NCBI GenBank assembly: GCA_013331945.1
Contig: DUFK01000014.1
Span: forward strand, 9,234 to 51,912
Reading direction: 5' to 3'
Origin: Nanobdellota archaeon
GTDB lineage: Archaea > Nanobdellota > Nanobdellia > Pacearchaeales > UBA12030
DNA length: 42,679 nt
Within the stretch, counting starts at the first letter, position 1. Every line of letters begins with the position of its first letter. Shown piece after piece: positions 1,268 to 31,036 of the stretch. The notes beneath the pieces are model-generated. The model was not told the origin of the DNA, searched no databases, and saw nothing but the letters and a program-made list of their open reading frames with translations. Both the position numbers and the translations under genes were made by a program.

Positions 1268-1591
1268 TTACTTCATATGCTTCAACACGGTCTTGCGCAA
1301 CTCCTCAACATGGCTCTGAAGCGCTCTTTCCTGCTTTTCGATGCTTTTCATCCTAAGAGAGATCAGATCTTTCTTCTCATCGAGTTCTTTTTTCAGCCTT
1401 TCCTTGCTGCTTTTGATCATCACATTCCCGACAATCTTGAACACATCGCCTTTACTTGCTTCAAGCTCCTCGCTTGCAGACGTCACTTCTCCAAGTTCAA
1501 GCTGGAATGTCTGTTTCTGGAAAAGCAGGTTTCCAAGATTCTGCTCAAGCAGTTGTAATTCCTTTACTTTTTCATCTATGTCTTGTTCCAT
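1268..1591 (-). CDS. pfdB: prefoldin beta subunit
   Basis: 107 aa with two coiled-coil arms around a central beta hairpin region (VFKIVGNVMIKSSKERLKKEL). Size and pattern are typical of archaeal prefoldin beta. Confidence 0.8.
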   Translation of the reverse strand: MEQDIDEKVKELQLLEQNLGNLLFQKQTFQLELGEVTSASEELEASKGDVFKIVGNVMIKSSKERLKKELDEKKDLISLRMKSIEKQERALQSHVEELRKTVLKHMK

Positions 1592-1683
1592 TTTGCTTTA
1601 TTTTTGTGTTTGGTACTGGCTCGCAAGAAACACGCGTGTTTCCGCGTGCGTGCGTTTTTGTGTGTTTAGATGTGAGAAAGGGC

Positions 1684-1824
1684 TTAATCTGCCTTTATTC
1701 TCGTGACCGTGCTCCTTACTTTATAGAAGATCCTGCTATCGCAGTAAGTGCATTTACCTTTGGTCTTCTGCAAAGCCTTGTGTGCAATCTTCTTCCCACA
1801 CTTGAAACATTTGTAATTCGCCAT
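1684..1824 (-). CDS. rpoP: DNA-directed RNA polymerase subunit P (Rpo12)
   Basis: The track ORF 1684-1911 is trimmed to the internal ATG at 1822-1824. This gives MANYKCFKCGKKI...CTYCDSRIFYKVRSTVTRIKAD, 46 aa, with a CxxC...CxxC zinc ribbon followed by RI.YK.R, as in Rpo12. The upstream extension is low-complexity and overlaps a repeat. Confidence 0.75.
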   Translation of the reverse strand: MANYKCFKCGKKIAHKALQKTKGKCTYCDSRIFYKVRSTVTRIKAD

Positions 1825-1870
1825 TTTATTTATCTTGATTTTCTTTGATTTATTTTTTCTTTGAGTTTTT

Positions 1871-1934
1871 GTTTCTTGCATAAGCTTCTTTTGCTTAAGT
1901 GTTTCTTGCATAAGCTTCTTTTTGAAAGAAGCTT
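1871..1934. repeat. tandem 20-mer plus 10-bp perfect hairpin (AAGCTT hairpin family)
   Basis: gtttcttgcataagcttctt occurs at 1871-1890 and 1901-1920. The second copy runs into the hairpin aagcttcttt/ttg/aaagaagctt (1912-1934), which overlaps the eL43 stop codon (1933-1935). A third copy with the same stem lies at 11465-11497. Confidence 0.85.
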
Positions 1935-2127
1935 AAGGCCAATAAGCCTGTCCTGTAAATTTCTTTTTGCACTTGGTGCAGTTGAAAATGCCTACTGAAA
2001 CCCTCTTTACCGCGAACCTGCTGCAGAACGGGCATTTATGTTTCTTGTACTGCCTCACTTCAATCTTCTCGACTTTCTTCTTGACAGTTGATCCATACCT
2101 CGGGCCAAATCTTTTCGTTGAGTTCAT
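1933..2127 (-). CDS. rpl37ae: 50S ribosomal protein L37Ae (eL43)
   Basis: 64 aa, MNSTKRFGPRYGSTVKKKVEKIE...HKCPFCSR..VKRVSVGIFNCTKCKKKFTG.AY. This is the characteristic eL43 zinc ribbon. Confidence 0.9.
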   Translation of the reverse strand: MNSTKRFGPRYGSTVKKKVEKIEVRQYKKHKCPFCSRFAVKRVSVGIFNCTKCKKKFTGQAYWP

Positions 2128-2149
2128 TTTTCGTTCAGGTTGTTTTGTC

Positions 2150-2157
2150 TTTTAAAT
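2150..2157 (-). promoter_or_regulatory. TATA box for rpl37ae
   Basis: Minus-strand tttaaaag lies 23-30 nt upstream of the ATG at 2127, in the 38-nt gap after tRNA-Pro. Confidence 0.5.
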
Positions 2158-2165
2158 TTTTGGAA

Positions 2166-2333
2166 TGGGGCTGCCCGGACTTTCAAGGCCCTTCCATTGG
2201 TTTCTTTCGTGGACGTTTCTTCCCAAGAAAGGTCCATTTGAACCGGGGTCACCAGCTCTCTTGTTTTGCAGAAGCTTTTTTTAAAAGCTTCATCCCAAGG
2301 CTGGGATCTTAGACCAAGCTGGACCACAGCCCC
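2166..2333 (-). tRNA. tRNA-Pro (UGG) with two introns: canonical 37/38 (2258-2293) and T-loop (about 2179-2235)
   Basis: Minus strand reads GGGGCTG-TG-GTCC-AGCTTGGTCTA-AGAT-C-CCAGC-CT-TGG-G[36 nt]A-GCTGG-TGAC-CCCGG-TTCAAAT[57 nt]CCGGG-CAGCCCC-A. The acceptor, anticodon and T stems are all Watson-Crick. Anticodon at 2295-2297. CCA is not encoded. This supersedes the 73-aa track ORF 2124-2345. Confidence 0.85.
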
Positions 2334-2357
2334 ACTCAAGAGCAACAGGATTAATCC

Positions 2358-2367
2358 TTTTAAATAA
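2358..2367 (-). promoter_or_regulatory. TATA box for tRNA-Pro
   Basis: Minus-strand ttatttaaaa ends about 25 nt upstream of tRNA position +1 (2333). Confidence 0.55.
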
Positions 2368-2430
2368 TTTCTTTTGTGCTGTGCCTTGATTTAGGCCAGG
2401 TTTTCTAGATCCCAGACGTAGTCTTAAGTT

Positions 2431-3180
2431 TTACTTCTTCTTGGCCTCTGGCTTTGCTTCCTTACCTTTCACAGGGGCTTTCGCTTTCTCTGCTTCTGGA
2501 GCAGCCTTGGCCACTTTGCCTTCTGCGGCCTTGCCTTCTTCAGCTTCTTTTCCTGCCTCTGCCTTCTCAGCCTCTGCAGGCTTCTTGGCCTTTGCCTCCT
2601 CAGCAGCTTTCGCAGCCTCTTCAGCCTTCTTTCTCTTCTCGAGGATTGCCTTAACTTCAGCAAGCTGCTTCTCGAGAATTTGTGCTTTCTCAGCGCTCAC
2701 TTCGGTGATCTGCTTGCTGATTAATGAATCATATTTTCCTGCATTTATATCTTTGATTGTCTCCTTAGGCTCTTTCCCTTCAACAAGCACTCCAAGAGAA
2801 GTGCAAGTCCCGACCACATTCTTAACAGCCTCTTTAAAAGAATTAACTAACATATCCTCCTGTTTCGCTTTCGCAACCTTGATTGCCTGTTCGATTGCGA
2901 AATTCCCTATTTTTGCTTTGCTATCTGCAGCTCCTTTTGCGAGTGCGAGCTCTTTTTTTATCAGTTCAGAGGTTGGGGGGGTTTTTAGTGAGACAGTGAA
3001 TGTTTTTGTTACAGGATCTATCTCAACTATGACTGGAACCTTGATCCCCTTGTACTTCTCGCTGGCTTTATTCACATCCGCAATAAGTTTCCCGAGATTG
3101 ATCCCAAGCGGACCGAGCTGCTGGCTAAGTGATGGGCCAGGTTTGGCATTTCCGCCCTCGACCAATAATTTAAGTTGCAT
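2431..3180 (-). CDS. rpl11: 50S ribosomal protein L11 (uL11) with a ~90-aa Lys/Ala/Glu-rich C-terminal extension
   Basis: N-terminal ~157 aa match uL11 (GGNAKPGPSLSQQLGPLGINLGKLIADVN...KTPPTSELIKK). The rest is AEEAAKAAEEAKAKKPAEAEKAEAGKEAEEGK... Located downstream of spt5, as in the conserved archaeal cluster. Confidence 0.9.
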   Translation of the reverse strand: MQLKLLVEGGNAKPGPSLSQQLGPLGINLGKLIADVNKASEKYKGIKVPVIVEIDPVTKTFTVSLKTPPTSELIKKELALAKGAADSKAKIGNFAIEQAIKVAKAKQEDMLVNSFKEAVKNVVGTCTSLGVLVEGKEPKETIKDINAGKYDSLISKQITEVSAEKAQILEKQLAEVKAILEKRKKAEEAAKAAEEAKAKKPAEAEKAEAGKEAEEGKAAEGKVAKAAPEAEKAKAPVKGKEAKPEAKKK

Positions 3181-3232
3181 TTTTGAGTTTTCTTTATCTT
3201 TACTTTATCCCACAAGATTATTCTTGGAAAGA

Positions 3233-3709
3233 TTAATTGAAGTCGTCGCTTCCTTCTTTCTCTGGGCCATCAGCCTCTCTGCGAATGACGCGGACATCAT
3301 CTATCTTCCTAGTTATAGGTATCGAGACAGCTGCCTCAAGAAGTTCGATGACAACTTCTTCCTTTGCTTTGTTGATTCTCACGACGCGTGCTTTTTCTCT
3401 CTTTAGGGGCTCTGCAATGATTTCGACGATATCGCCCTTCTCTATATTCATCTCTTCAACAGAGGTTTCGAGCATGTGTTTTATCTCGTCAAAACCCGCG
3501 GGATTTTTCAGGAGATTCTTGACATACGGCAGGTTCTTGAAAGCCTCTTCTGCTTCTTTCCTGTTCTCTGCTTCCACGACGATGTAACCTCGTAGGCCAT
3601 GGGGCCTTATGACAGAGTATATCTTCAAGCCCTTGGATTCGACACGCCTTGCTATCAAATCAACTGCCTGTTCTTCCTTATTTGTTGTTACTTTCAGAAC
3701 AAAAATCAT
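3233..3709 (-). CDS. spt5: transcription elongation factor Spt5 (NusG)
   Basis: 158 aa. NGN domain (IFVLKVTTNKEEQAVDLI...GYIVVEAE) plus a KOW motif (EKGDIVEIIAEPLKREKARVVRINK). Canonical position upstream of rpl11. Confidence 0.9.
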   Translation of the reverse strand: MIFVLKVTTNKEEQAVDLIARRVESKGLKIYSVIRPHGLRGYIVVEAENRKEAEEAFKNLPYVKNLLKNPAGFDEIKHMLETSVEEMNIEKGDIVEIIAEPLKREKARVVRINKAKEEVVIELLEAAVSIPITRKIDDVRVIRREADGPEKEGSDDFN

Positions 3710-8449: not shown

Positions 8450-8480
8450 TCAGAAATTTGTAATGTGGGGTTCTAAGTAA

Positions 8481-9773
8481 ATGACCGGCAGGATTTATGG
8501 GCTTGAAACAGAATTTGGAGTTCTTCCAGTTCTAGAGAGTCCGGAGGATATAGCAAAAAAAGTTCCTTCTAAAGGATTCACTAAGAATGGCGGAAGATAT
8601 TATGTATGTGTTTCAGGAAATCATCCCGAATATGCAACTCCAGAATGTGCAAGTGTGCGTGACTTGGTGAAGTACGATAAAACAGGTGAAGTCATCGCGC
8701 AAGCCTTGTCGCCAAAGTTAGAACTGTATAAGAATAATTTAGGGTATCGTGGAGAGGAGACATTTGGCTGCCATGAGAACTACTTGGTGAAGAAGGAAAT
8801 CTTCAATGAAGAAAAGCTTGCACCATTAATCCCATTCCTCGTAACGCGGCAGATTTTTGCAGGCGCAGGGTGGGTTGAGTTCTATAGCGATGGAGAAATG
8901 AAATACAATTTATCGCAGAGAGCGCAGAAGATGACTGAGGAGTTCAGCACAGGCACAAGCGCTGCCACAAATAGGGCCATAGTCCATCTGAAAGGCGAGC
9001 CGCACACAACTATAGGAGAGCGGCTCCACCTTATTCTTGGGGATTCGAACATGTCCGAAATCGCCACATATCTGAAAGTCGGGACAACTTCACTCGTTCT
9101 GGATATGATTGAAGACGGTACTCTAGAGGAAAAAATCAGGCTTGAAGATCCACTCAGAGCCTTGCGTAATATATCTGAAGACCAATCAAGAAGATGGATT
9201 GGAAGAAGAGACGATGGGAAAACTATTTCTGCTATAGATATCCAGCGGATGTATCTCGAGAGGGCGATGGAGTATAAGGGAGTGGATGACGAAACAGATG
9301 ACATCCTTGCAAGATGGGAAAGAACTCTGGATTTGCTGGAAAGGAAGGACTTCACAGCGCTTTCGAGACAAGTGGATTGGGTCGCTAAAAAAGGCCTAGT
9401 AGATATTTGTGCCAATGATGAAAGAAAAGTTGAAGTGGACAAGTTAAGAAGCATTGATCTGATGTACAGCGCAATAGACAAGGAAGAAAGTTTATTTTAT
9501 GCGCTCCAGGATCAAGGCTGTATGGACAGGATTGTGAGCGATGAGGAGATCAAAGAGGCCACTTTTACTCCGCCGAGAGATACTAGGGCATGGTGCAGAG
9601 GAAACCTTGTCGGAAAAAGGATCATCACATCCATAGATTGGGAAGAAGTCGACACAAAGTATGGATACGTAAGTTTAGATGACCCATTTAACCAATATGA
9701 AAAGAAGCTAAAGAGAGTCCTAACGCTCCATAATCTAAAACGAACCAACACTTTTAAAAAGGAGCGGGGTTAG
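8481..9773 (+). CDS. Pup ligase/deamidase family protein (PafA/Dop homologue)
   Basis: 430 aa. It aligns by eye along its whole length with my recollection of mycobacterial PafA. Shared motifs: RIYGLETEFG, HPEYATPEC, FGCHENYLV, PFLVTRQIFAGAG, LSQRA, GDSNMSE..YLKVGTTSLVL, IDIQR.Y, VDWV.KK. Confidence 0.85.
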   Translation: MTGRIYGLETEFGVLPVLESPEDIAKKVPSKGFTKNGGRYYVCVSGNHPEYATPECASVRDLVKYDKTGEVIAQALSPKLELYKNNLGYRGEETFGCHENYLVKKEIFNEEKLAPLIPFLVTRQIFAGAGWVEFYSDGEMKYNLSQRAQKMTEEFSTGTSAATNRAIVHLKGEPHTTIGERLHLILGDSNMSEIATYLKVGTTSLVLDMIEDGTLEEKIRLEDPLRALRNISEDQSRRWIGRRDDGKTISAIDIQRMYLERAMEYKGVDDETDDILARWERTLDLLERKDFTALSRQVDWVAKKGLVDICANDERKVEVDKLRSIDLMYSAIDKEESLFYALQDQGCMDRIVSDEEIKEATFTPPRDTRAWCRGNLVGKRIITSIDWEEVDTKYGYVSLDDPFNQYEKKLKRVLTLHNLKRTNTFKKERG

Positions 9774-9807
9774 AGGTAATAAAATACCCTGAAAATCAAA
9801 AAATAAA

Positions 9808-9972
9808 ATGGTAAAGATTCCAGTTGCGCAACAAAGGCTCTACAAGAACATATTTGTGTGCAAGCGCTGCTCGCTCAAGAGAAGGGCCACTCCAAAGCAC
9901 ATCATCGAAAAGAGGGTAAAGTGCAGGCGCTGCGGAAGGAATGAGTTCAGGCCTATCAGGAAGAAGACGTAA
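9808..9972 (+). CDS. rpl40e: 50S ribosomal protein L40e (eL40)
   Basis: Not in the track (54 aa). Hand translation: MVKIPVAQQRLYKNIFVCKRCSLKRRATPKHIIEKRVKCRRCGRNEFRPIRKKT. The CxxC...CxxC pattern and RP.R.K tail are typical of eL40. Confidence 0.8.
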   Translation: MVKIPVAQQRLYKNIFVCKRCSLKRRATPKHIIEKRVKCRRCGRNEFRPIRKKT

Positions 9973-9983
9973 TCTCGAGGATA

Positions 9984-10235
9984 ATGGTGAAGGCCAAAAT
10001 ATACATATTCATGAGGCCAGAGTATCTAAATGGCGCAGCAGATTCAAAAAAAGAGGACCTCATCAGGAATGGATTCGCCGAAGTCAAAGATGTTACGCAA
10101 AGTAAGTATATAGAATTGGAACTTCAATCCTCGAAATCCAGAAAAAGCCTGGAAAGAAGGGTTGATGAGATGTGCAAAGGTCTGCTTGCAAATAAGGTGT
10201 ATGAGACTTACAGGTTTGAAATTGAAACTAGATGA
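9984..10235 (+). CDS. PurS-like protein (FGAM synthase PurS family fold)
   Basis: 83 aa. KIYIFMRPEYLNGAADSKKEDLIRNGFAEVKDVTQSKYIELEL...VDEMCKGLLANKVYETYRFEIE follows the PurS consensus closely (V.V..K..VLDPQG......L...G...V..VR.GK.IEL......V..MC.KLLAN.VIE.Y..E). No purL or purQ in the window. Confidence 0.65.
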   Translation: MVKAKIYIFMRPEYLNGAADSKKEDLIRNGFAEVKDVTQSKYIELELQSSKSRKSLERRVDEMCKGLLANKVYETYRFEIETR

Positions 10236-10249
10236 AATATTAAAGAAAA

Positions 10250-11416
10250 ATGGTTAATTATGATCTTATCTTATTCGGAATTTTTGCCTTTCTTCTCGTA
10301 ATTTTCTACTTCAGGAACAAAAAGAAGATTGAGTTCCAGGGGATTGTCGCGCTCTATAAGACAAAGCTCGGTCTTGCGCTTTCAAAGAAGATTGTGCGCA
10401 AGCGCGAGAAGCTTTTCATTGTCCTGGGATACATCGGGATTGTTCTCGGATTTATCGGAATGGCATTCATTTTCTATACTCTCGCTTCCGGAAGCGTGAA
10501 CGTCTTCATCAAGCCAGAAGCAGCCCCAGTTGTGGCTCCAGTGCTTCCATTCGTGAAGATTCCTGGCCTTCCTCCCCTGCTCTTTACGTATTGGATAATC
10601 AGCATCTTCATCGTTGCTGTAATTCATGAATTCTCTCATGCACTTCTTTCAGTTGCGCATAAAATCAAGGTGAAGAGCTCTGGCTTTGCTTTCTTTGGCC
10701 CCATCCCTGCTGCATTTGTAGAGCCGGATGAGAAACAGCTGGCAAAAAAGAGCAGGGCTGCGCAACTTTCAGTGTTCGCTGCAGGGCCATTCTCTAACAT
10801 CATCACAGGAATTTTGTTCTTCCTCATATTCGCCTTCCTGATTGCACCTTATGTTGCTTCGATGGGAAATGTTAATTTTGAGATCGCAGATGTAGTTAAT
10901 GGAAGCCCTGCATTCCTATCAGGCCTCCAGAAAGGGCAGACCATAGAGAGTATGAATGGCCTTGATGCTTCACCAAAGAACGTTTCCTCGGTTCTTGCAA
11001 GCCTTGAGCCAAATGACATCCTTGAGATAAAATCTGGAGGAAAAACCTACACACTAAAAACAGATAAGAATCCCCAGAACCAGAGCAAGGGATTTATCGG
11101 AATAAGCATTGATGCGAAGCTTGAGCCGAAGCGGGAGACCAGCAAGGCATATTTCAGTTTCATGATGTGGCTTCGCCAGCTTTTCTTCTGGCTTTTCGCA
11201 CTCTCACTTGGAATCGGTCTTTTCAACCTGCTCCCACTAGGTCCTATAGATGGAGGAAGAATGCTTCTAGTCGGCCTCGGTTCTTTCATGAAGGATGAGA
11301 AGAGAGCAAAGAAGATTTTTTCATTCGTCTCATTTGTAAGCCTTCTTTTGATACTGATAAATCTGGCACCATGGTTTGCAAAAGCCTTTGGCTCGATCGG
11401 AAGGGCCATAGGGTAG
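10250..11416 (+). CDS. site-2 protease family (M50) intramembrane metalloprotease with PDZ domain
   Basis: 388 aa. HEFSHAL (HExxH) sits in a TM helix, with a PDZ-like GSPAFLSGLQKGQTIESMNG and a second S2P motif FNLLPLGPIDGGRM. Confidence 0.9.
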   Translation: MVNYDLILFGIFAFLLVIFYFRNKKKIEFQGIVALYKTKLGLALSKKIVRKREKLFIVLGYIGIVLGFIGMAFIFYTLASGSVNVFIKPEAAPVVAPVLPFVKIPGLPPLLFTYWIISIFIVAVIHEFSHALLSVAHKIKVKSSGFAFFGPIPAAFVEPDEKQLAKKSRAAQLSVFAAGPFSNIITGILFFLIFAFLIAPYVASMGNVNFEIADVVNGSPAFLSGLQKGQTIESMNGLDASPKNVSSVLASLEPNDILEIKSGGKTYTLKTDKNPQNQSKGFIGISIDAKLEPKRETSKAYFSFMMWLRQLFFWLFALSLGIGLFNLLPLGPIDGGRMLLVGLGSFMKDEKRAKKIFSFVSFVSLLLILINLAPWFAKAFGSIGRAIG

Positions 11417-13216: not shown

Positions 13217-14110
13217 TTACTCAGTAACCTTCAGCGTCGCTTCAGAAGTCTCCACATACTTGTACCTCAAGCGGAATCTTATAGGGCTTACATGATCTGA
13301 AGCGCCCTGCATGTTCCTCTTGCACAGGATCGTGCTCCCAACTCTTCCTTCGCCGCTCTTCTCTCCGCTCAATGTAGGCTTGCAATCAAGAGGCTCTTCT
13401 GTCTCTATCGCTGCGAGGATCGCATTCTCTAAGTAAGGCTCTGGGGTTGCGCAGTTTGCAGTTGGCGCATAAACCTTTCCTCTTCCTTTATTCTCAACAA
13501 CGAATTTAATGAGAACATTCTGTCCACTTCTCTCTTCGGTCAAAGAAGTGATCTGCAATGGTCCATCCCCTATTGTTGCACCCTTAAGCTTGCCTTCCTT
13601 ATCTTTCGCTCCTGCACTTAGAGAGCATACCTGCGATCCTTCGAAAGCAAAGCAGATGTCTGCCCTCACATCTGACTCATATACATAGCATGATTTGTAG
13701 GAAATCTTCTGATCGTAATTCACATTCTGTCCCGTATAGCGCGCATTATCAGTGAAGATGATATTCTCCCTTCCGCCAGCAACTCCAGATGCACGAAGGG
13801 CCTTCTTGAGCTCTGCTTTGTTTTGCTTTACCAGTTCAGTCTGCGACAGCGAAAAAAGTTCAGGAAAGAATCCTCCAAGAAATACCTGTGCCTCTCCTGC
13901 CTTTACATCATAACTCCCCTTATTCTCAAGCGTGACCATGAATCTAAAGTCTTGGCCCTTACTTACCTGCGATGGAGGAGCGCCAGAAACCAGTTCAAGA
14001 GCAAGGCCTTCTGTTCCCGAGGCTTGCTGCCCCCCTCTTTTGCATCCGGCTTGCCCGAAGGCAAGCAAGGCGAGTATGAGTGTGAGTGCGAGAATATGTG
14101 TTGTTTTCAT
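13217..14110 (-). CDS. secreted/lipoprotein-like beta-rich protein, paralogue 1
   Basis: 297 aa. Signal peptide MKTTHILALTLILALLAFGQAGC (lipobox-like AGC). Shares its architecture and C-terminal strand pattern with 14140-15060 and with the ectodomain of 15108-16613. Confidence 0.7.
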   Translation of the reverse strand: MKTTHILALTLILALLAFGQAGCKRGGQQASGTEGLALELVSGAPPSQVSKGQDFRFMVTLENKGSYDVKAGEAQVFLGGFFPELFSLSQTELVKQNKAELKKALRASGVAGGRENIIFTDNARYTGQNVNYDQKISYKSCYVYESDVRADICFAFEGSQVCSLSAGAKDKEGKLKGATIGDGPLQITSLTEERSGQNVLIKFVVENKGRGKVYAPTANCATPEPYLENAILAAIETEEPLDCKPTLSGEKSGEGRVGSTILCKRNMQGASDHVSPIRFRLRYKYVETSEATLKVTE

Positions 14111-14139: not shown

Positions 14140-15060
14140 TTAACGTTGTTTATCTTCAGATTCTACGAACAAGGTATGGGTCTTCACCGCTTCTACTGTA
14201 TAATCCAGCTTTATCCTTAACGGATGGGCTATGACTCCTTCAGAATTAATCACCCCCGTACACCTTAAAACCCTTTCGGTCAGCACTTCTAAAGTGCTTC
14301 CATCTGTATCACATTCCAAAGAATATGGCCCAAAACTGACGTCATTGACAAATACTTTATTCACAGCCTCTTCATTGAATCCGGAGACAGCTCCCGGAAG
14401 CAGCAACTTCCCATTCACCTGTTTCTTCAGGTTTATCTTCACAGAAAGTTTCACCTGCCCATCAGAGATGCGGAAAACATTCTTTTCTATGCTGGAAATT
14501 CCAAGAGGTGCTTTTACTTTAGAAGAGATGCTTTCAGAGGTCTTGCAGGAGGTTGTTGTCTGCTTGAGCGGATCTTTCACACATATCACTTGTGAGAAGT
14601 CAGTAGAGTATTGATACAAAATGGAAGTAGAGATTGTAGTTGGCTGACTATCCAATCCCCGATACATAAAAGAACTTCCTTCTGAAGGAAGCGAGATTAT
14701 TTCGCTCCTCGGAACAACCTTGCCTTTGTCTTGAGATGCCGAAGCGATAGAGAAGATTTCGCAATTTTTCCCTATTCCACCGTAAATATCATCTACAGTA
14801 TCTTCAACGCAGAGCTCGCCAGTTGTTGGAATCTCCCCAAAATTCTCTATCTTAGCGATGACCTGGAATTCTGCGTCAGGCTCTATTTTTACAGGCGGCG
14901 CATCTGGAAGCAAAGAGAAATCAAGACCAATCGTACCTGCCTTGCTGTTTGTCCCTCCCCCACCCGGAAAGGTGAAAGGATTTGAAGCACTGCATCCGGC
15001 TTGCCCGAAGGCGAGGAGTGCCAGCAAAAGTGTGAGCGCCAATGCGTGATGTGTTTTCAT
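14140..15060 (-). CDS. secreted/lipoprotein-like beta-rich protein, paralogue 2
   Basis: 306 aa. The signal peptide MKTHHALALTLLLALLAFGQAGC is almost identical to paralogue 1. The 21 nt gcatccggcttgcccgaaggc are identical in both genes. Confidence 0.7.
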   Translation of the reverse strand: MKTHHALALTLLLALLAFGQAGCSASNPFTFPGGGGTNSKAGTIGLDFSLLPDAPPVKIEPDAEFQVIAKIENFGEIPTTGELCVEDTVDDIYGGIGKNCEIFSIASASQDKGKVVPRSEIISLPSEGSSFMYRGLDSQPTTISTSILYQYSTDFSQVICVKDPLKQTTTSCKTSESISSKVKAPLGISSIEKNVFRISDGQVKLSVKINLKKQVNGKLLLPGAVSGFNEEAVNKVFVNDVSFGPYSLECDTDGSTLEVLTERVLRCTGVINSEGVIAHPLRIKLDYTVEAVKTHTLFVESEDKQR

Positions 15061-21240: not shown

Positions 21241-21362
21241 GCTCCTATGGTGTAACGGATAGCACACAACCTTGCGGAGGACCTTCTTTGCGAAAGAAGC
21301 TCCACCAAGAAAGAAGGGAAAGTGAAAAGGTTGTAATCGGGGTTCGAATCCTCGTGGGGGCA
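21241..21362 (+). tRNA. tRNA-Arg (GCG) with a 50-nt canonical intron (21278-21327)
   Basis: GCTCCTA-TG-GTGT-AACGGATA-GCAC-A-CAACC-TT-GCG-G[50 nt]A-GGTTG-TAAT-CGGGG-TTCGAAT-CCTCG-TGGGGGC-A. Anticodon at 21274-21276. Starts 5 nt after the tsaC stop. Confidence 0.8.
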
Positions 21363-21942: not shown

Positions 21943-24426
21943 TCACTCCTTATCGCTCAAGCCAGCCTCGCGCAGGAAGAATAAGCATTCCGCATCTGGC
22001 ATGTTCGGCGAGTCGATAAGTTTTGCGACCCTGCTGTCTTTCTTTCCTTTTCTGAAATATAATCTGTAAGTTGAATTATGTACAATAAATCCATTTGCAA
22101 TGTAATTCTCATTCTTAGGCACGCTTAGATCAAAGAGTGGCTCACTATTTGCTTTCTCCCTAATACTTCTTATCTTCTCGAATCTTAGATCTCCATTAAG
22201 AAGTGAAATTAAGAATTCCATCTTTCTTTTGATCTGCATATCTTTAATCTCAGTTCTCATTAAAGTATTTACAGCTGCGCGCAATTCTCTTACATTCACA
22301 TATTGGTAACTTTCCGGTCTATGCTTGATAATCTTTGAAGGAACCAGGCCAGCATCTTTGAGTAGATGCCATAACTCTTTTCTTTTTACAGGAGTCATCT
22401 CTTTGGTATAAGTATTACTGCAATAGTTTACCCATCCCTCAAGCAGCTTTTGCTTATCCGTTGCTGTAAAACCGATTCTTGTATAATCAAAAACATCTCT
22501 ATCTCTTATGTCTAGATGTGTATGTTTTTTCTTTCCGACATCAAGGCGGAGATGGCTTCTTACTCCAAGTCTAAGCAATAATAGCTGTATACGTTTCAAA
22601 ATTTCCTTATCTTTCTGTGCAAGCGTGATTCTCGGTCTTTTCTTGCTGATGTAGCCCTCTGCATCAGAAAAGCCCTTTATGAAGGCTGCGATATGCTCTT
22701 CTTTGCTTTTTCCTATATAATCGAATAAGTCAACGAAGAGTTTTTCAAAGAGCTCTTTTATTGCTACTGAGTTTATATTCAATGTATAGCAATTCTTGCC
22801 CCCCATCTTTGTTATGCCTCCTTCTACATTGAACATTTCCTTAAACAACTGCCTATAATTTTCCAAAACCTCAAGCCTTTCATCCCTAAATCTAAGCCCA
22901 GATTTCTCAAAATTACCATCCCCTAAGAAATAGCCTAGTATTTGCGCTATCTGTGGCACTAAAATTTCCGACATAATTATGTTTCTATGCTTGTGTGTCT
23001 CATGTAAGGCAACGTGTTGAACAAGATGCAATCCAAGATAATTCTGCAAGCTGTCTATTACCGGGCTATAAGTTGGATATTCTTGATTTAGAACTCTTCT
23101 AAATTGTCTTGGGGTTATTCCAATCTTCTTACAGACTTCTTTTCTTGTAACATTGTTTTCCCTTAGCTTCTCCTTAATGACTTTTTGGCCTTCTTTAGAA
23201 ATCTTCTTTACAGTCTTAACCGTGATTGCTGGCAGCTTCTGCTCCTCTCCCTCTATTTCTAACTTTCTGGCCATTAAAACAAAGTCTCCATTTTTTAGAT
23301 TTCTGGCTTCTTCTTCTTTAACTGAAAAGTCTTCAACCAAGAAGAATCTATGGAGTGGAGAGGCTTCTATTGTGCTTCCTGCTTTAATTTCATACACTTT
23401 GTTGATGGTAGGATTAACAAATCTTGCATCATTTTCTGCTGCTTCAAGCTTCATCCTGCTGAAATTGGCTGCCATTAAAGAATTATTCTTGTTTAAATCC
23501 ACTATTGCCCTGATTCTGCCATCTGAAAGTTGGATAAGGGTATCGGAAGTAAGACAGGCGTGCCCGATGATGTTCCCTCCAACGGCCGCTGTTGGATCTC
23601 CGAAAAGCATGTCTGGCCTTGACATTACTTGGTTTGTGATGTAAATCGCCAGGTTGTATGAATCTGCAAGCTTCTGCAGCTGATGTAGGTGCTGATTAAG
23701 CTTCTGCTGCCTATCTGCCAGCATTCCTCTGCCGACAAATTCACTTCTGAAAAGATTCATGATAGAATCCACGATGACGAGCTTGATAGGATTTCCGCCG
23801 TTTATCAAGTCTGAAACTTTTTCTGCAAGAAGCATTTGGTGGTCTGATGAGAATGCACGTGCGACGAGAATCTTTTTCAGGGCTTCTTCAGGATTCATCC
23901 CGTAACCTTTTGCGAGCTGTTTGATTCTCTCTGGCCTGAATGTCGCTTCTGTATCGATATAGACTGCCATCCCTTCTGCACCACTCTTCGTCTTAGGGAG
24001 TTGTACAGAGCACGCAAGTGAATGTGCAACCTGTGTCTTTCCGCTTCCGAAAGCGCCGAAAGCCTCTGTTATGGATTTGGTCTCAACTCCTCCCCCGAGC
24101 AGGCCATCAAGATTCTTGCTCCCTGTTGTTATTCTAAGAACTTCCTTTCTTTTTTCTAAGAACTGGTTGGCATCAGTAAATCCTAAATCAAGCCCCTTCC
24201 TTGCAGCAAGTATCGCTTTCCTTGCAGTGCTCTCTGTGAGCTCGGCCATCTGTGAAAGTGCGCGCGGAGAAAGAACAGCAATGCTCATAAGGTCTACGTA
24301 ACCTGCAGAAATCAATCTCTTTGCTGTAGCCTCGCCAATCCCGGGCAAGTCTGTAAGCTCAAGCTCTGGCTCTTTCTGCTCAGCTTGCTCAACTTGTAGT
24401 GGCTTTTCCTCAATTTTATCTGGCAT
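21943..24426 (-). CDS. radA: DNA repair and recombination protein RadA, interrupted by an intein
   Basis: HhH N-domain (LTDLPGIGEATAKRLISAGY), Walker A (GAFGSGKTQ), Walker B (LVIVDS), then ...AVGGNIIGHA / intein / STYRLYFRKGKK... The track start is a TTG (24471); the ATG at 24424-24426 (MPDKIEEK) is preferred. Confidence 0.92.
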   Translation of the reverse strand: MPDKIEEKPLQVEQAEQKEPELELTDLPGIGEATAKRLISAGYVDLMSIAVLSPRALSQMAELTESTARKAILAARKGLDLGFTDANQFLEKRKEVLRITTGSKNLDGLLGGGVETKSITEAFGAFGSGKTQVAHSLACSVQLPKTKSGAEGMAVYIDTEATFRPERIKQLAKGYGMNPEEALKKILVARAFSSDHQMLLAEKVSDLINGGNPIKLVIVDSIMNLFRSEFVGRGMLADRQQKLNQHLHQLQKLADSYNLAIYITNQVMSRPDMLFGDPTAAVGGNIIGHACLTSDTLIQLSDGRIRAIVDLNKNNSLMAANFSRMKLEAAENDARFVNPTINKVYEIKAGSTIEASPLHRFFLVEDFSVKEEEARNLKNGDFVLMARKLEIEGEEQKLPAITVKTVKKISKEGQKVIKEKLRENNVTRKEVCKKIGITPRQFRRVLNQEYPTYSPVIDSLQNYLGLHLVQHVALHETHKHRNIIMSEILVPQIAQILGYFLGDGNFEKSGLRFRDERLEVLENYRQLFKEMFNVEGGITKMGGKNCYTLNINSVAIKELFEKLFVDLFDYIGKSKEEHIAAFIKGFSDAEGYISKKRPRITLAQKDKEILKRIQLLLLRLGVRSHLRLDVGKKKHTHLDIRDRDVFDYTRIGFTATDKQKLLEGWVNYCSNTYTKEMTPVKRKELWHLLKDAGLVPSKIIKHRPESYQYVNVRELRAAVNTLMRTEIKDMQIKRKMEFLISLLNGDLRFEKIRSIREKANSEPLFDLSVPKNENYIANGFIVHNSTYRLYFRKGKKDSRVAKLIDSPNMPDAECLFFLREAGLSDKE
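22075..23556 (-). mobile_element. RadA intein (494 aa) with LAGLIDADG homing-endonuclease domain
   Basis: Starts with Cys (CLTSDTLIQLSDGRI) and has a block B-like SPLH. Two dodecapeptide motifs (LGYFLGDGNF, IKGFSDAEGY). Ends ...NGFIVHN followed by the +1 Ser. Boundary codons were verified on the sequence (tgt at 23554-23556, aat at 22075-22077). Confidence 0.88.
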
Positions 24427-24522
24427 TTTCCCCTTCCCTATTTTCCCCTTGCTGGATGAGAAAGGCGGCAAAAACTTATAAATTTATGCGTGATTTTTGG
24501 CTATTTGTTGCGTGGTTGGAGG

Positions 24523-26137: not shown

Positions 26138-26971
26138 TCAGCTATCACGTATAGAGAAGGCAAAATTGAACTTTAGCTCTCCGAATTTATCCACTCCATC
26201 TGTAAAGAACACTTTTCTCTTAGAACTTGCCTCGAAGATAATGAAGTCTCCGTCTTTATTCACGACTACATTAAAACTCTTGAACTTTTCAGAGTCTAAA
26301 GAAGAGATGACGCAGGCGTACACATCCCTCTCTTTTTTACATTGCCCCATAGACTTCTTGCCTTCGCCATAAAGAGAGTAAAATTCAGAGAGGGAGAAAG
26401 GCAACTCCACACTGATTGGAGAATTGCTACTATACTGAAATTTTGGTAAGGAGTATTCCAAGCTTTTTTTAGGGGTTACTGTTAGAACCTCTTCGGAAAG
26501 TTTTATATCGAAGCCACTTTCAGCCTTGCCTGTGACGACTTTTGAGAGAGAAGTTGGGGGGATATAGAGTAAATCATTACTGCTCCAGGTTGTTTCATAC
26601 TTACCTACAGAATCTTTGAGGTACATCTCAAATCTGGATAGGAACTCCGCCTCAAACTCATTTTTTGGAGCAAGGGTACATTTAGAGTCGAACACTCTCC
26701 CATAGATGCCTGAAACAGAACATCTGCCCTCGGTCGGCGGATTTTCCGCGAGTTTGAAAATGGATTGGTCTGAAGCCAAACGTGTTGACTCTTCCAAATA
26801 AAATTGTGCCTCTCGGGCCTCTGATTGGATAGCCAGAAGCGTAAGTGGGCTCAAAACCTCATCGGCAATCTCTCCACGGAAGACAACACCTGCATAGATG
26901 GCGTAGACCGTTACAGCGATGGCTATGATTAGGATTCCGAATGCGAAAGTCGTTCCTTTTTTATTTTCCAT
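26138..26971 (-). CDS. class III signal peptide (pilin-like) protein
   Basis: 277 aa. MENKKG/TTFAFGILIIAIAVTVYAIYAGVVF. Last gene of the minus-strand operon. Confidence 0.7.
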   Translation of the reverse strand: MENKKGTTFAFGILIIAIAVTVYAIYAGVVFRGEIADEVLSPLTLLAIQSEAREAQFYLEESTRLASDQSIFKLAENPPTEGRCSVSGIYGRVFDSKCTLAPKNEFEAEFLSRFEMYLKDSVGKYETTWSSNDLLYIPPTSLSKVVTGKAESGFDIKLSEEVLTVTPKKSLEYSLPKFQYSSNSPISVELPFSLSEFYSLYGEGKKSMGQCKKERDVYACVISSLDSEKFKSFNVVVNKDGDFIIFEASSKRKVFFTDGVDKFGELKFNFAFSIRDS

Positions 26972-26993
26972 TCTCCTGTTCGTAGCTCCCAGA

Positions 26994-28472
26994 CTAGCCC
27001 GCGATCAAGACAATTGCAGATTTTTCTGGAGCTATATCATCTGTTGAGCATTTAAGGTAATTGATAGATGAAAGGATCTTCTTTTCGTTCGGGTCAAAGA
27101 AAGTATTCTCACGATTTATGTTGGCGCTCATTATCGATCTTCCAGTCTTGCCTTTATCCTCCACCTTGTTCCCTAAGCAGCAGACACCGTCTCCGATTAG
27201 GTCTGGGGATATTCCAGCAGAGATTCCACAGCAAACGTTTGGATCATTTGGATTGGTTGATGCAGGATTACATCCAAGCTCTTTTTTCAGCATATTCACG
27301 CTGGGATCACATCCGTCACTCTCGAATAATAGGGAGTTACATCCCGGAGAAAGATAGCTGCAATATTGGTCGCCGAAACCAAAGGAGCTGTGAGAGAATT
27401 CATGGAGCAATGTATCTAGACTAGTTGGGGATTCTGAATCTCCCTGAAAGATGGGGAAGATGAGATTAAATTTATCCGGCTCATACCCTAGTGCATCCAG
27501 TTTCTTACGGACAAATCCAGCCCATTCCAGCTCCCCAAGATTGTATTCCTCGAATGCAAAGAGAGAACTGCTAGGATCATCATTTCCTTGAAAAGCTGTG
27601 CTGAAATCGTTTTTAGTGAAGACATTTACATTACCGATCTTGGAATAGACTTTGCTTCTGCAATCCTTTAAAGGGAGATTATCGATAAAGAAGTCAACTA
27701 TCTTCTTCCCCTCTTTATTTGCAGCGTCTTGAGATTCCCATTCGCCAGCAGGCACTAATAAAAGTTCTATCTTGTACTTTTTCTCGGCGGGAGAAAGAGT
27801 GGAGCCTTCCCTGCCTTGCAAAGGTTCCGATGCCCCACTCAAGGTCTGCGAATTGGAGCCAGTATCGGAGAAGCTTTTTACATTGCACATAGTATTGCAT
27901 TCTTCAAAACTTTTTTCTTCCAGGCAGGAATTGTATGATTCCTTGAAGCTAAATTTAAATTTTGGATGTTGTATTACGGAGACTCGGGGCGTGAGGGGCG
28001 GTGATCCAGTTGGTGTCAAAATAGATTGCCGAGAGGGATTGCCGCTTTGTGGCTGCTCAACCCAGTTGTAGTTTATTTCACTCCCATCTGGAAATTCTAC
28101 CTTGAATGCATAGCATTCTCCATAAGTCCTCTCGAGTGCTTCATTTACTCTATCTTTAATGAGCTCTTCAGGCACATCAGCCTCGACTTTTGCTTTATAA
28201 ATCGAAAAAAACTCAGCGAAAGTCATCACTGTTTTTGGCGAATGATCCACTTCTAATTTAAGGGAGGTTTTCAATAACGATTCTGCTGGAGAGCTGTCTT
28301 CAAAGCTGAGGGCACTTTTAGTCTCGAATTCTTTCTTCAGGAAGAATGGAAAGAAGATATGCGTGACTACCAGAAATGCAAATATAATTCCTGCCAAAAA
28401 GAAGATGGCTAGCATCGTTGCGAATGCCGAGCCCATTATCCCTCGTTTTTCCGATTTCATATTTGATTTCAT
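26994..28472 (-). CDS. pilin-like N-terminus fused to a putative zinc metallopeptidase domain
   Basis: 492 aa. MKSNMKSEKRG/IMGSAFATMLAIFFLAGIIFAFLVV. The LLHEFSHSSFGFGDQYC motif (HExxH at 27390-27404) resembles HEFGHSFGGLADEY-type zincins. The C-terminus is Cys-rich (CCGISAG...GVCCLGN). Confidence 0.65.
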   Translation of the reverse strand: MKSNMKSEKRGIMGSAFATMLAIFFLAGIIFAFLVVTHIFFPFFLKKEFETKSALSFEDSSPAESLLKTSLKLEVDHSPKTVMTFAEFFSIYKAKVEADVPEELIKDRVNEALERTYGECYAFKVEFPDGSEINYNWVEQPQSGNPSRQSILTPTGSPPLTPRVSVIQHPKFKFSFKESYNSCLEEKSFEECNTMCNVKSFSDTGSNSQTLSGASEPLQGREGSTLSPAEKKYKIELLLVPAGEWESQDAANKEGKKIVDFFIDNLPLKDCRSKVYSKIGNVNVFTKNDFSTAFQGNDDPSSSLFAFEEYNLGELEWAGFVRKKLDALGYEPDKFNLIFPIFQGDSESPTSLDTLLHEFSHSSFGFGDQYCSYLSPGCNSLLFESDGCDPSVNMLKKELGCNPASTNPNDPNVCCGISAGISPDLIGDGVCCLGNKVEDKGKTGRSIMSANINRENTFFDPNEKKILSSINYLKCSTDDIAPEKSAIVLIAG

Positions 28473-28942
28473 CTTTTTTTGACTAATATTTCGATATCTA
28501 AAGTTCCTGGATGTACTGTGCCTTCGAGATTAACTGCCACATATTTCCTAGACTTACTGCAGTAAGGAGCATTTTTCTCCTCATTGAACACACAAAGTGG
28601 CTCCAAGTAATCAAATTCATCTGTCTTAGCCACAATACTTGCATCCAGGACAGTTAAATTAAGTTTAGCTCCGACTGCATCTGATGAGAGGCATTTTTCA
28701 AGTTCTTTCGAGTCGATTTTGGCGAAATCTATAACTCCAACATCCTCGTAAAAACAGGTTCCTGCTCTTTGGGAGAAAATGGCTGCTTCTATGGGAGTTA
28801 CGTCTATAGCAGAAACTAGGATAGCGATAAAAAAGGAGACTGCAAGAGCTAAGGGCAAAAGAAGAAAAAGTAGCCTGGGAATCCATAGCATACCTTCTGC
28901 TACATCCCCTTTTTTATCATTAAGCAGGTTTTTGTTTAACAT
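28469..28942 (-). CDS. possible pilin-like protein
   Basis: 157 aa. MLNKNLLNDKKG/DVAEGMLWIPRLLFLLLPLALAVSFFIAILV. Overlaps both neighbours (4 nt and 23 nt). Confidence 0.55.
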   Translation of the reverse strand: MLNKNLLNDKKGDVAEGMLWIPRLLFLLLPLALAVSFFIAILVSAIDVTPIEAAIFSQRAGTCFYEDVGVIDFAKIDSKELEKCLSSDAVGAKLNLTVLDASIVAKTDEFDYLEPLCVFNEEKNAPYCSKSRKYVAVNLEGTVHPGTLDIEILVKKR

Positions 28943-29327
28943 TTATTTCCAGTGTATTTTCAGTAGATTTTTTGGTGATCTCTTTATTCTCGTTCAGGAC
29001 TATTTTGTAAGATGTGGCTGATAAGAGTTTTGATTTTTTGATCTCCAGCTTTTTCTCTTTTTCATTTACCACTATATCGAAATTTTCTCCTTCGACTAGG
29101 GCCTTGTTCAGATTAAATGCGACGGCAGCGTCTGGATCGGAATTAAAGGCTGCGTCCAGCCATAATGCCTGCGATTTTGAGGCGAGGTTTAGTTGGAGTT
29201 TTTCTCCGTGGAGAGAGGAGTAGATAAAATATAAAAGGGAAGCACCGATGATCGCAACTATAATCAGCTTGATTATCTCATTATACAGCAATCCCATAAC
29301 TCCTCTTTTATCTTTCATCAGTCCCAT
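28920..29327 (-). CDS. class III signal peptide (pilin-like) protein
   Basis: Trimmed to the ATG at 29325-29327, 1 nt after the upstream stop: MGLMKDKRG/VMGLLYNEIIKLIIVAIIGASLLYFIY. Confidence 0.65.
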   Translation of the reverse strand: MGLMKDKRGVMGLLYNEIIKLIIVAIIGASLLYFIYSSLHGEKLQLNLASKSQALWLDAAFNSDPDAAVAFNLNKALVEGENFDIVVNEKEKKLEIKKSKLLSATSYKIVLNENKEITKKSTENTLEINVKQKPA

Positions 29328-29328
29328 T

Positions 29329-30417
29329 TTATGCTGCCCCCCCAGTTTCACCGGTTTCTTCATCTGCATAGTATTTCTTCCACTGCTGGTAGAAGCTCAA
29401 AATTCTTGATTGATAATCGCAGGTTGTTCCCGATTTCCCAGTATTATAGACGCAGAAGATGCACTTCCATTTTCCTTCCTCATCTCTGAAATTTCCAACG
29501 CAGGAGGCATAAGACCCTTCAGCCCTTCCTGAAGCCTGCTCATATGCGCTTCTGAGCGTTTTTGCGGTGCACTTCAACTGCCCTTCATCACTGAATACAT
29601 TGTCTCCAGAACACTTGCATCCTCGCTTGCAAGAAGTGGGCCATCCGCATCCGGTGAGAGCACTTTTTCCGACAGAAGTGCATTTATTGTTTGTTCCCAT
29701 CCCGCTCTCGAGTGATGCGAATGATGCGATAAGTGCAGGATCAATTCCTTTCTGAGAGGCATAATCTTCAGCGAGCTCTTTCCTCGTCTTATCAGATTTG
29801 AATGCCTTGCTTTCGTACGCCTTGACAAAGTTGGAGCTTGGAAGTTCTGTGCCTGCAGATACTCCCGGGCCAACTACAGGTGAAGTTCCTCCAAGACCTG
29901 CATCTCCATCTACATCATCAATATCCGTTCCAGCCTTTCCTGCTTTTTTATCTCCGCTTATCAGAACATAACTCGCATCCTGTGACAAGTAGACATCATA
30001 AGGCCCCTCACCGAACTCAACCTTGTTCTTGTTCCCTTCTGAATCCTGTATTTTTACATCCTTGAATACTATTTTGCAATATCCCTCTTGCTCGCAATCA
30101 GTGCTTCCGAACCATCCATTCTTGCAAAGGCATAGGCAAGAAGCTCCGGAGCAGGAATCAGGGCTTGCTCCCTTATCAGCTCCTTTATCAAAGCCTTTTA
30201 TTGTCCACCCGCTTCCGACGTAAAGGACAAAAAAGCTTGGCTGCTCCCCTGTTTTGAGTTTCTGTATCTCTGTGATGAGTGTGTTGAAGTATTCCTTCGT
30301 AACTCTTCCCTCTGTTTTAGATAGGTAGCTGGCAGTAGCGAGAATTATGAGTGCAATGAGCATCAGCAGCAGAATTATTTCAATAAAATTCTTCCTCAGC
30401 ACACCCTTTTTTTCCAT
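29329..30417 (-). CDS. pilin-like N-terminus fused to a lytic-transglycosylase (SLT)-like, Cys-rich domain
   Basis: 362 aa. MEKKG/VLRKNFIEIILLLMLIALIILATASY. The C-terminal part, GIDPALIASFASLESGMGTNN...GKSALTGCGW, resembles the SLT catalytic E-S motif region (Glu codon at 29707-29709). Confidence 0.6.
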   Translation of the reverse strand: MEKKGVLRKNFIEIILLLMLIALIILATASYLSKTEGRVTKEYFNTLITEIQKLKTGEQPSFFVLYVGSGWTIKGFDKGADKGASPDSCSGASCLCLCKNGWFGSTDCEQEGYCKIVFKDVKIQDSEGNKNKVEFGEGPYDVYLSQDASYVLISGDKKAGKAGTDIDDVDGDAGLGGTSPVVGPGVSAGTELPSSNFVKAYESKAFKSDKTRKELAEDYASQKGIDPALIASFASLESGMGTNNKCTSVGKSALTGCGWPTSCKRGCKCSGDNVFSDEGQLKCTAKTLRSAYEQASGRAEGSYASCVGNFRDEEGKWKCIFCVYNTGKSGTTCDYQSRILSFYQQWKKYYADEETGETGGAA

Positions 30418-30479
30418 TAAAGATAGAAGGAGAATTATTTTTTAAAGGTTGTTAAGAGGGGAAAAGAAAAAGGAAGAGA

Positions 30480-30674: not shown

Positions 30675-30675
30675 T

Positions 30676-31023: not shown

Positions 31024-31036
31024 CTTCCTCTTTTCT

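Follow-up and report, generated by a model that had tools for sequence, protein, structure and literature searches.

A PafA/Dop-family protein with cysteine at the catalytic aspartate position in a DPANN archaeon

A PafA/Dop-type gene and its product

The window analysed here, a stretch of 42,679 nucleotides of contig DUFK01000014.1 from an assembly assigned to a Nanobdellota archaeon (GCA_013331945.1), contains an open reading frame (ORF) at 8481-9773 that starts with ATG and encodes a protein of 430 residues from the Pup ligase/deamidase (PafA/Dop) family. An initial annotation of this DNA, made from the sequence without database searches, had placed a complete PafA/Dop homologue of an archaeal genome at these coordinates, which were reproduced. 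The gene encodes a full-length protein with the PafA/Dop fold, of the carboxylate-amine ligase type, that is native to a DPANN archaeon (Table 1), and cysteine (Cys43) occupies the position of the catalytic aspartate of the family.

Table 1. Features of the window and of related archaeal loci
Feature	Position	Strand	Basis
PafA/Dop-family (Pup_ligase, PF03136) gene, Cys-variant orphan clade, 430 aa	8481..9773	+	ORF, Pfam, model, dN/dS
GhExE nucleotide/Mg2+ motif G7-L8-E9-T10-E11, retained	8499..8513	+	family alignment, positions at least 96% conserved
Catalytic loop R39-Y-Y-V-C43-V-S-G-N-H-P-E-Y51	8595..8633	+	family alignments, HMMER, model
Cys43 codon TGT, at family catalytic Asp position	8607-8609	+	family alignments
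Alpha-loop, ~residues 149-165, QKMTEEFSTGTSAATNR, differing from PafA as well as from Dop	8925..8975	+	alignments, model
C-terminal helical domain, PafA/Dop-typical, ~residues 266-416	9276..9728	+	conservation table, model secondary structure
aIF5A gene, 31 nt upstream, likely true start giving ~130 aa	8015..8449	+	NCBIfam NF003076
54-aa C4 zinc-ribbon ORF, probable eL40, 34 nt downstream	9808..9972	+	PDB matches
PurS gene, 11-nt gap, next co-directional	9984..10235	+	PF02700, TIGR00302
M50 site-2-protease-type membrane peptidase, last of co-directional cluster	10250..11416	+	PF02163
Small ORFs directly upstream of Asp-retaining homologues, archaeal type IV pilus loci	L004:9751-9924, L087:2055-2234, L088:5788-5967 (= L089:30-209)		

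The Pup_ligase profile of Pfam (PF03136) matched the protein with 373 bits (E = 2.9e-111, cut-off 25) over residues 30-390, which correspond to profile positions 69-440 of 441. All of the conserved blocks listed in the initial annotation are present: GLETEFG (residues 7-13), HPEYATPEC (48-56), GCHENY (96-101), FLVTRQ (119-124), LSQRA (144-148), GDSNMSE (187-193) and LKVGTT (198-203). The GhExE motif, as defined in PMC2588565 and PMC7947786, is intact, and the nucleotide, Mg and phosphate ligands of the PafA/Dop family are all retained; in the family alignment, the shared active-site ligands G7-L-E9-T-E11, E50, H98, E99, N100, R123, R147, R165, R181, H183, N190, E193 and K199 are kept, as are the family-invariant residues W279, D299, W300, K303, P365, T368, R369 and R373 of the C-terminal domain. 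Conservation reaches at least 90% at 78 positions of the family, and the clade to which the protein belongs (hereafter the window clade) departs as a whole at only three of these: D43C, N169H and H330S.

Among sequence matches to solved structures, Dop was the best in the Protein Data Bank (PDB) with 241 bits, and PafA scored 189 bits. An AlphaFold2 (AF2) model obtained with 77 homologues as input (predicted local distance difference test, pLDDT, 91.5; predicted template modelling score, pTM, 0.93) was compared with the PDB by Foldseek, giving template modelling (TM) scores of 0.86-0.88 to every entry of Dop and 0.81-0.86 to every entry of PafA. The next-best fold was that of YbdK/GCS2, with a TM score of only about 0.5. 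The GCS2/YbdK enzymes and glutamine synthetase resemble the protein in the ATP-dependent acyl-phosphate chemistry expected of it and in the beta-sheet cradle (PMC2588565), but are about 10% identical to it and lack the PafA/Dop C-terminal domain.

Replacement of the catalytic aspartate by cysteine

The catalytic loop reads Y-L-D64-V-G-S-H-P-E-Y in PafA and Y-V-D94-H-A-H-P-E-Y in Dop, as against Y-Y-V-C43-V-S-G-N-H-P-E-Y in the window protein. The aspartate is proposed to serve as the base by which the attacking lysine or water is activated, and possibly as the direct nucleophile in Dop (PMC3511204, PMC8599861). HMMER placed C43 opposite D64 of PafA, and opposite N64 of the structure 4BJR, with a one-residue insertion relative to PafA. 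The D64N mutant of PafA reportedly served to trap the PafA-Pup complex of that structure. C43 comes directly after strand 39-42 in the AF2 model, and, whichever alignment is used, the loop that connects GGRYYV to HPEY lacks an acidic residue. The catalytic column is occupied by Asp in 261 of the 267 family members aligned with MAFFT, where Cys is confined to the five sequences of the window clade. In an alignment of 412 members to a hidden Markov model (HMM), 391 have Asp, nine gaps are due to fragments, and the window clade shares its Cys with two further representatives, P0127 and P0179, both with loops of PafA length. The initial annotation, which had judged the protein probably competent from its essentially complete set of conserved blocks, overlooked this residue, and its judgement is not supported in view of the Cys.

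Cys43 is encoded by TGT here and by TGC in two of the related contigs (L002 and L003), and the residue is invariant across the five clade sequences, which are 63-72% identical. The ratio of nonsynonymous to synonymous substitution rates (dN/dS) of the ligase homologue is 0.10-0.13, similar to that of PurS (0.11) and looser than those of aIF5A, eL40 and FtsZ (0.03-0.06); dN itself is 0.19-0.21 versus 0.036-0.09 for neighbouring housekeeping genes, so that the protein evolves three to six times faster than they do. The gene is under purifying selection, and since dN/dS is near 0.1 and the codon has changed synonymously, Cys43 is a selected residue and not an error. The overall picture resembles a directed alteration of the chemistry rather than general decay.

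Relationship to PafA and Dop

The protein fell far below the cut-offs of both NCBIfam equivalogs, those of PafA (TIGR03686; 320 bits against 551.3) and of Dop (TIGR03688; 301.7 bits against 492.3). In a neighbour-joining tree of 189 non-redundant PafA/Dop family members, the window clade was monophyletic (bootstrap 100) and lay outside the Dop clade and outside the smallest clade holding actinobacterial and Nitrospirae PafA, and was excluded from both paralogue clades of UBact loci (bootstrap 76 and 60). The phylogenetic comparison suggested in the initial annotation thus sets the window clade apart from PafA, Dop and the UBact-locus proteins, with its deeper attachment at bootstrap values of 20 or below. 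Because both equivalog cut-offs were missed and the clade lies outside both groups, the name PafA is not applicable; by sequence criteria, the protein is neither PafA nor Dop.

The Dop-loop (about 40 residues before the NG-R-LY strand) is absent, residues 14-34 spanning that region in the family alignment, and the HMMER alignment of the protein to Dop begins only at Dop residue 86. At the majority of the positions that discriminate Dop from PafA (PMC7947786, Table 1) the protein is PafA-like (A25, S30, F33, V44, G46, A52, S156, D386); V42 and P54 are Dop-like, and several others match neither.

The protein shares with PafA of C. glutamicum (4B0T/4BJR) the fold, the GhExE, HPEY, GCHENY, TRQ, SQRA and GDSNMSE motifs, the C-terminal domain, the lack of a Dop-loop and a PafA-like loop length, but differs in being about 31-41% identical and about 45 residues shorter (in the N-terminal segment and internal loops), in having Cys43 and a one-residue insertion where PafA has D64, in an alpha-loop that is predicted to be non-helical, in its archaeal host, and in a neighbourhood without pup, proteasome, pafBC or mpa genes. 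Dop of A. cellulolyticus (4B0R, 7OXY) is the best match in sequence and structure, and is alike in HPEYxTPE with its Pro and in the loop-like alpha-loop of the model, but the window protein has neither the Dop-loop nor D94, and most of its discriminators are not Dop-like. The view in the initial annotation that the protein is more PafA-like than Dop-like is supported by the missing Dop-loop and by most discriminators, V42 and P54 being the exceptions.

The alpha-loop, the role of which is described in PMC7947786 (section 8) and PMC8599861 (section 6), retains R165, the counterpart of PafA R201, which contacts the C-terminus of Pup (PMC8599861). In the AF2 model this segment consists of a strand and a loop. 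About three of the nine PafA-specific alpha-loop residues (H188, W190, E191, G192, S194, S195, A196, R199 and S200 in C. glutamicum numbering) are matched, as E153, S156 and T157, in an ambiguous alignment. A reading in which two conserved alpha-loop threonines are replaced by 'AA' in the window protein was dropped as alignment-dependent; the PafA alignment gives T159-S160.

Rarity and archaeal relatives

The Cys-variant clade is very rare: 5.8 billion proteins yielded three further clusters at 90% identity, 1.84 billion representatives yielded a single cluster at 50% identity, and a scan of 241 million metagenome records for the Cys-loop pattern returned only two contigs, both already known. 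Among the matches listed for GTDB species representatives there is no close relative, the best being bacterial and 41% identical. The PafA/Dop family is overwhelmingly bacterial in database matches. The nearest sequence neighbours, at 41-48% identity, include bacterial proteins of the PafA2-family of UBact/Pup loci (from the Gram-negative phyla Armatimonadota, Latescibacterota, Planctomycetota and Poribacteria) and three homologues in archaeal contexts, P0005, P0012 and P0031 (44-48% identity). The archaeal three are like the window protein in being short (411-428 residues) and without a Dop-loop in an archaeal host; unlike it, both they and the PafA2-family keep the catalytic Asp and have an adjacent modifier gene, ending in ..RYRQRTGE in bacteria or ..YKQxxxE in archaea.

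The loci of P0005, P0012 and P0031 have the order T2SSE, T2SSF, T2SSF, small ORF, ligase homologue and archaeal pilins (DUF7266/DUF7289). The small ORFs end in ..EEIVYKQSTRE, ..KETVYKQHPRE or ..GRQYKQEGGE; they align with the bacterial UBact sequences ..RYRQRTGE and ..RYRQRSGE from two bacterial loci (L011 and L019), and their endings are intermediate between UBact and Pup (..YVQKGGQ/E). The pilus-linked small ORF and the Asp-type homologue are candidates for an archaeal Pup/UBact-like tagging module. Three tandem PafA/Dop paralogues were also found (L017:9623-16659) on a 237-kb contig labelled Methanosarcinales, with a Pup-like ORF between them (L017:12692-12883) that ends in ..MDEMDYLINKDNLEKNYKQTSAE (listed also as ..DGVMDEMDYLINKDNLEKNYKQTSAE); one of the paralogues is degenerate, with ETKYG and with Gly at the Asp position. 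Predicted Pup/UBact-like modules are present on archaeal contigs, and the premise of the initial annotation that pupylation is a bacterial system calls for qualification in view of these archaeal homologues with adjacent modifier-like genes.

P0127, one of the two other Cys-type representatives, adjoins GMP synthase. The gene of the other, P0179 (loop H-A-C-S-N-F-H-P-E-Y; L091:1549-4358), starts 33 nt after that of a pyridine-nucleotide disulfide oxidoreductase (Pyr_redox_2 plus dimerisation domain), a neighbour that might be a hint of thiol chemistry. Two other family members, P0399 (705 residues) and P0410 (701 residues), combine Pup_ligase (PF03136) and Proteasome (PF00227) domains and are apparent fusions or merged gene calls.

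P0219 and P0391 represent a second archaeal clade without the Asp, with Y-V-N and a 9-residue loop insertion; P0391 has His at the position of R147. Their context consists of a thermosome gene, an ORF of about 131 codons, the homologue and TrpRS/TyrRS (L092:7537-7947 and L092:10001-11299, also L094 and L095). Just upstream of the thermosome gene in L092, a 136-aa ORF ends in ..RRLKLGGE, and its shorter counterpart in L094 ends in ..NARDE.

These relatives bear on the question of whether the window protein is a pseudoenzyme, either an ATP- or peptide-binding protein (for example a receptor, a chaperone-like or a regulatory protein) or a gene on its way to loss. Such a status is unlikely. In its favour, the catalytic base and the linkage to a modifier are lost, the protein evolves faster than those encoded by neighbouring housekeeping genes, and the clade of P0219 and P0391 is eroded further, in the loop and at R147. 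Set against this are the low dN/dS, the invariance of Cys in five sequences despite a synonymous codon change, its recurrence at the same site in other lineages, the strict retention of metal and nucleotide ligands that would be superfluous for mere binding, and the streamlined nature of DPANN genomes.

Search for modifier, proteasome and unfoldase genes

HMMs built from Pup, from bacterial UBact (sequences from L011 and L019) and from the archaeal ..YKQxxxE ORFs were applied together with C-terminal motif scans, and no Pup/UBact-like ORF rose above noise in the window, in the 10-kb extensions of it (L090 and L098; about 63 kb in all) or in the related contigs L001-L003. No UBact gene (ending in ..R-[TS]-G-[EQ]) adjoins the genes of the window clade, whereas L011 and L019 have one. 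Scans of ORFs and domains agree with the initial annotation that the window has no credible ORF ending in GGQ or GGE and no mpa/arc or prcAB genes, no proteasome or AAA unfoldase domain being present in any window ORF scanned. A stop-to-stop frame ending in ..AGGQ (30198-30344, minus strand) was rejected: it lacks a start codon and falls, in another frame, within a gene of 362 aa. Proteasome components are reportedly encoded by all archaea (PMC12288473), so that the 42-kb window is uninformative on proteasome genes.

A competent PafA-like Pup ligase that acts on lysine targets by the standard mechanism, with its modifier encoded elsewhere in the genome, would have all of the ATP/Mg motifs and the C-terminal domain that are retained here, and would also be consistent with the missing Dop-loop, the mostly PafA-like discriminators and R165. 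Such an enzyme is nevertheless very improbable, as the catalytic Asp is gone, the PafA equivalog score falls far short, the protein lies outside the PafA clade, the alpha-loop is predicted to be non-helical, and the modifier gene missing from about 63 kb is adjacent to the ligase gene in the archaeal relatives and, in the case of bacterial Pup, reportedly always adjoins a PafA homologue (PMC2588565).

The lack of a nearby modifier gene would also suit a small-molecule enzyme that has gone back to the habit of glutamine synthetase or GCS2, with a gamma-glutamyl thiol, polyamine or amide as substrate. YbdK/GCS2 and glutamine synthetase, as relatives, are small-molecule ligases (PMC2588565), P0179 and P0127 have an oxidoreductase and GMP synthase as neighbours, and polyamine genes lie about 35 kb off in the same genome. 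This possibility is distinctly unlikely: the C-terminal domain specific to PafA/Dop is retained with its invariant residues, the TM score is 0.86 to Dop/PafA against 0.5 to YbdK, and the Cys-type members have no conserved metabolic operon partner in common.

Genomic setting and host

The gene order FKBP (on the opposite strand), aIF5A, ligase homologue, 54-aa ORF, PurS and M50 peptidase is repeated in L001, L002, L003 and L098, which come from different samples and independent assemblies (ENA ERZ909577, ENA ERZ909590, Logan SRR22387954 and JGI 3300021357). The aIF5A gene matched NF003076 with 148.7 bits (cut-off 138) and contains the hypusine-site motif SKTGKHG. The 54-aa ORF has neither a Pfam nor an NCBIfam match; its best PDB matches are archaeal eL40 (E = 0.08 with the single sequence and 0.006 with a clade profile), in an alignment that is collinear across both CxxC knuckles, and it is 89-91% conserved in L002 and L003 with dN/dS of 0.04-0.06, so that its identification as eL40 is probable, on weak statistics. 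The initial annotation was right about the aIF5A flank and probably so about eL40, but goes too far in speaking of a translation-gene operon: PurS and the M50 peptidase also belong to the co-directional cluster, which is functionally mixed.

An analogy with EpmA, which acts on EF-P, raises the possibility that the ligase homologue might modify either eL40 or aIF5A, the latter for instance at its hypusine lysine or close to it. The three genes are co-directional and tightly spaced in all five contigs of the clade, but this synteny is limited to close relatives, in which neighbouring genes are 85-96% identical, and therefore may be inherited gene order; other archaeal homologues are located in type IV pilus or thermosome/TrpRS loci, and neither neighbour has a C-terminal Glu or Gln. 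Modification of either neighbour is thus hard to credit. A functional link between aIF5A and the ligase homologue beyond the clade was also considered and rejected, as the ORF of about 131 codons upstream of P0219 and P0391 is not aIF5A and other relatives are in pilus loci. About 35 kb beyond the ligase gene, the same genome encodes AdoMet decarboxylase, a BpsA_C-type aminopropyltransferase and agmatinase/arginase (L090:1438-3766), a polyamine set that is relevant to hypusination of aIF5A yet has no linkage to the ligase gene.

The window contains archaeal markers, namely an intein-containing RadA, RPA, aEF-1beta, aIF5A, FtsZ, SepF, prepilin peptidase, an archaeal-type pilus ATPase and a tRNA of 122 nt, a length that suggests an intron. 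FtsZ shares 100% identity with a protein of a 'Nanoarchaeota archaeon' metagenome-assembled genome and 99% with its counterpart in 'archaeon GW2011_AR6', and the nearest named relatives beyond those are Pacearchaeota (about 70%). From the markers and the FtsZ identities, the host is a groundwater DPANN archaeon (GW2011_AR6-like, related to Nanoarchaeota/Pacearchaeota). The family being overwhelmingly bacterial, it was considered whether mis-assembly or mis-binning had placed a bacterial gene in an archaeal contig; the chance of such an artefact is negligible. The GC content of the ligase homologue is 0.439 against 0.435 for the window, GC content at third codon positions (GC3) is like that of the neighbours, the gene is separated by short gaps from co-directional archaeal flanks, and the order recurs in four independent assemblies. 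Chimerism, for which the initial annotation had proposed a check for a composition break at 8450-9800, was accordingly rejected along with contamination: GC and GC3 are continuous there. A search of PHROGs for a phage or mobile-element origin of the ligase homologue gave no match.

Several other features of the window were noted. RadA recombinase (21943-24471, minus strand) is split by an intein with a LAGLIDADG homing-endonuclease domain. The tRNA (21241-21362, plus strand) has an Rfam span of 122 nt for a model of 71 positions, which implies an intron, and ARAGORN did not report it. Two adjacent paralogues (13217-14110 and 14140-15060, both minus strand) share a near-identical lipoprotein-like N-terminus, MKT.H.LALTL.LALLAFGQAGC, and have no Pfam match. 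The plus-strand ORFs at 1456-1848 and 2441-3406 are probably spurious; for this region (about 1400-3700), the genes called in the syntenic L002 and L098 lie on the minus strand and encode prefoldin beta, L37ae, L11 and Spt5/NusG. Small membrane proteins with pilin-like N-termini and a T2SSE-family ATPase are encoded at 26138-31249 and 36389-38635 (minus strand). This pilus-like run lies about 17 kb from the ligase homologue, and the Asp-type relatives sit inside pilus loci.

Proposed function

With the catalytic Asp replaced by Cys and no tag gene nearby, the protein probably has a role other than normal pupylation, and the suggestion in the initial annotation that it ligates a different substrate or modifier is reasonable. 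The interpretation preferred here, on which we regard the balance as about even, is that of a functional, neofunctionalised orphan enzyme of the PafA/Dop type with a catalytic Cys43. Such an enzyme would be neither an orthodox Pup ligase nor an orthodox depupylase. Its ancestor, a bacterial-type Pup/UBact conjugation enzyme, would have entered archaea by horizontal transfer and then been repurposed in the lineage of the window. The intact ATP/Mg site and C-terminal domain speak for an enzyme that keeps the first half-reaction and peptide binding, so that it would bind ATP and handle the gamma-carboxyl (or amide) of a C-terminal Glu or Gln, on a peptide or protein encoded elsewhere, to give the usual acyl-phosphate. 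The second step, normally performed by water or lysine activated by Asp, would be performed with Cys43 instead, either as a thiolate nucleophile that forms an enzyme-bound thioester, which an amine, water or a thiol would then resolve, or in place of Asp as a weaker general base. The contrast between the Asp-retaining archaeal relatives, which have an adjacent modifier-like gene, and the window clade, which has none in about 63 kb, is consistent with this interpretation.

The more specific proposal that Cys43 captures the acyl-phosphate of a C-terminal Glu gamma-carboxylate as an E1-like enzyme thioester on a glutamine-synthetase fold is speculative and, on balance, rather unlikely. If Cys43 does form a thioester, the sequence of ATP activation followed by a Cys thioester would be analogous to that of the E1-type ubiquitin/SAMP-activating enzymes; those enzymes differ in having an unrelated fold and in forming an acyl-adenylate rather than the hypothetical acyl-phosphate.

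Several points weigh against a catalytic Cys43 and the history proposed for it. The exchange of Asp for Cys could equally well have abolished the second half-reaction. When aligned to Dop by HMMER, the protein shifts by the difference in loop length, with S45, not C43, opposite D94; the equivalence of C43 with D64 and D94 is drawn from how the protein aligns with PafA and in the multiple alignments, and from the model's secondary structure. The erosion seen in P0219 and P0391 could mean that DPANN copies have generally lost catalysis. Action on a protein C-terminal Glu or Gln would be an extrapolation from family conservation only. The bootstrap values of the deep nodes are 20 or below, and therefore neither the transfer scenario nor sisterhood with the UBact-like archaeal group is established.

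Implications for the PafA/Dop family and for archaea

Pupylation enzymes have been treated as a bacterial speciality, with a mechanism that hinges on one aspartate. The family was described only in bacteria in the founding comparative analysis (PMC2588565) and in a later phylogeny (PMC7947786), and a search of the available literature found no paper linking Pup ligases with DPANN archaea. What is new here is a selected Asp-to-Cys variant in an archaeon without a tag gene nearby, together with related archaeal loci that have Pup/UBact-like genes.

If Cys43 is catalytic, the window clade would be a natural experiment on the rewiring of ligase and hydrolase chemistry on the PafA/Dop scaffold, complementing the engineered conversion of Dop to PafA (PMC7947786) and offering a possible thioester route on the glutamine-synthetase fold. 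If the protein is a pseudoenzyme, it would be a record of a horizontally acquired tagging system decaying or being co-opted in streamlined DPANN genomes. Should the thioester proposal be true, DPANN archaea would possess a previously unknown protein (or thiol) conjugation chemistry, and, taken together with the Asp-type ..YKQxxxE loci, Pup/UBact-like tagging would exist and have diversified in Archaea. Whether the protein is catalytic or a pseudoenzyme, these loci provide concrete, testable candidates for Pup-like tagging in Archaea.

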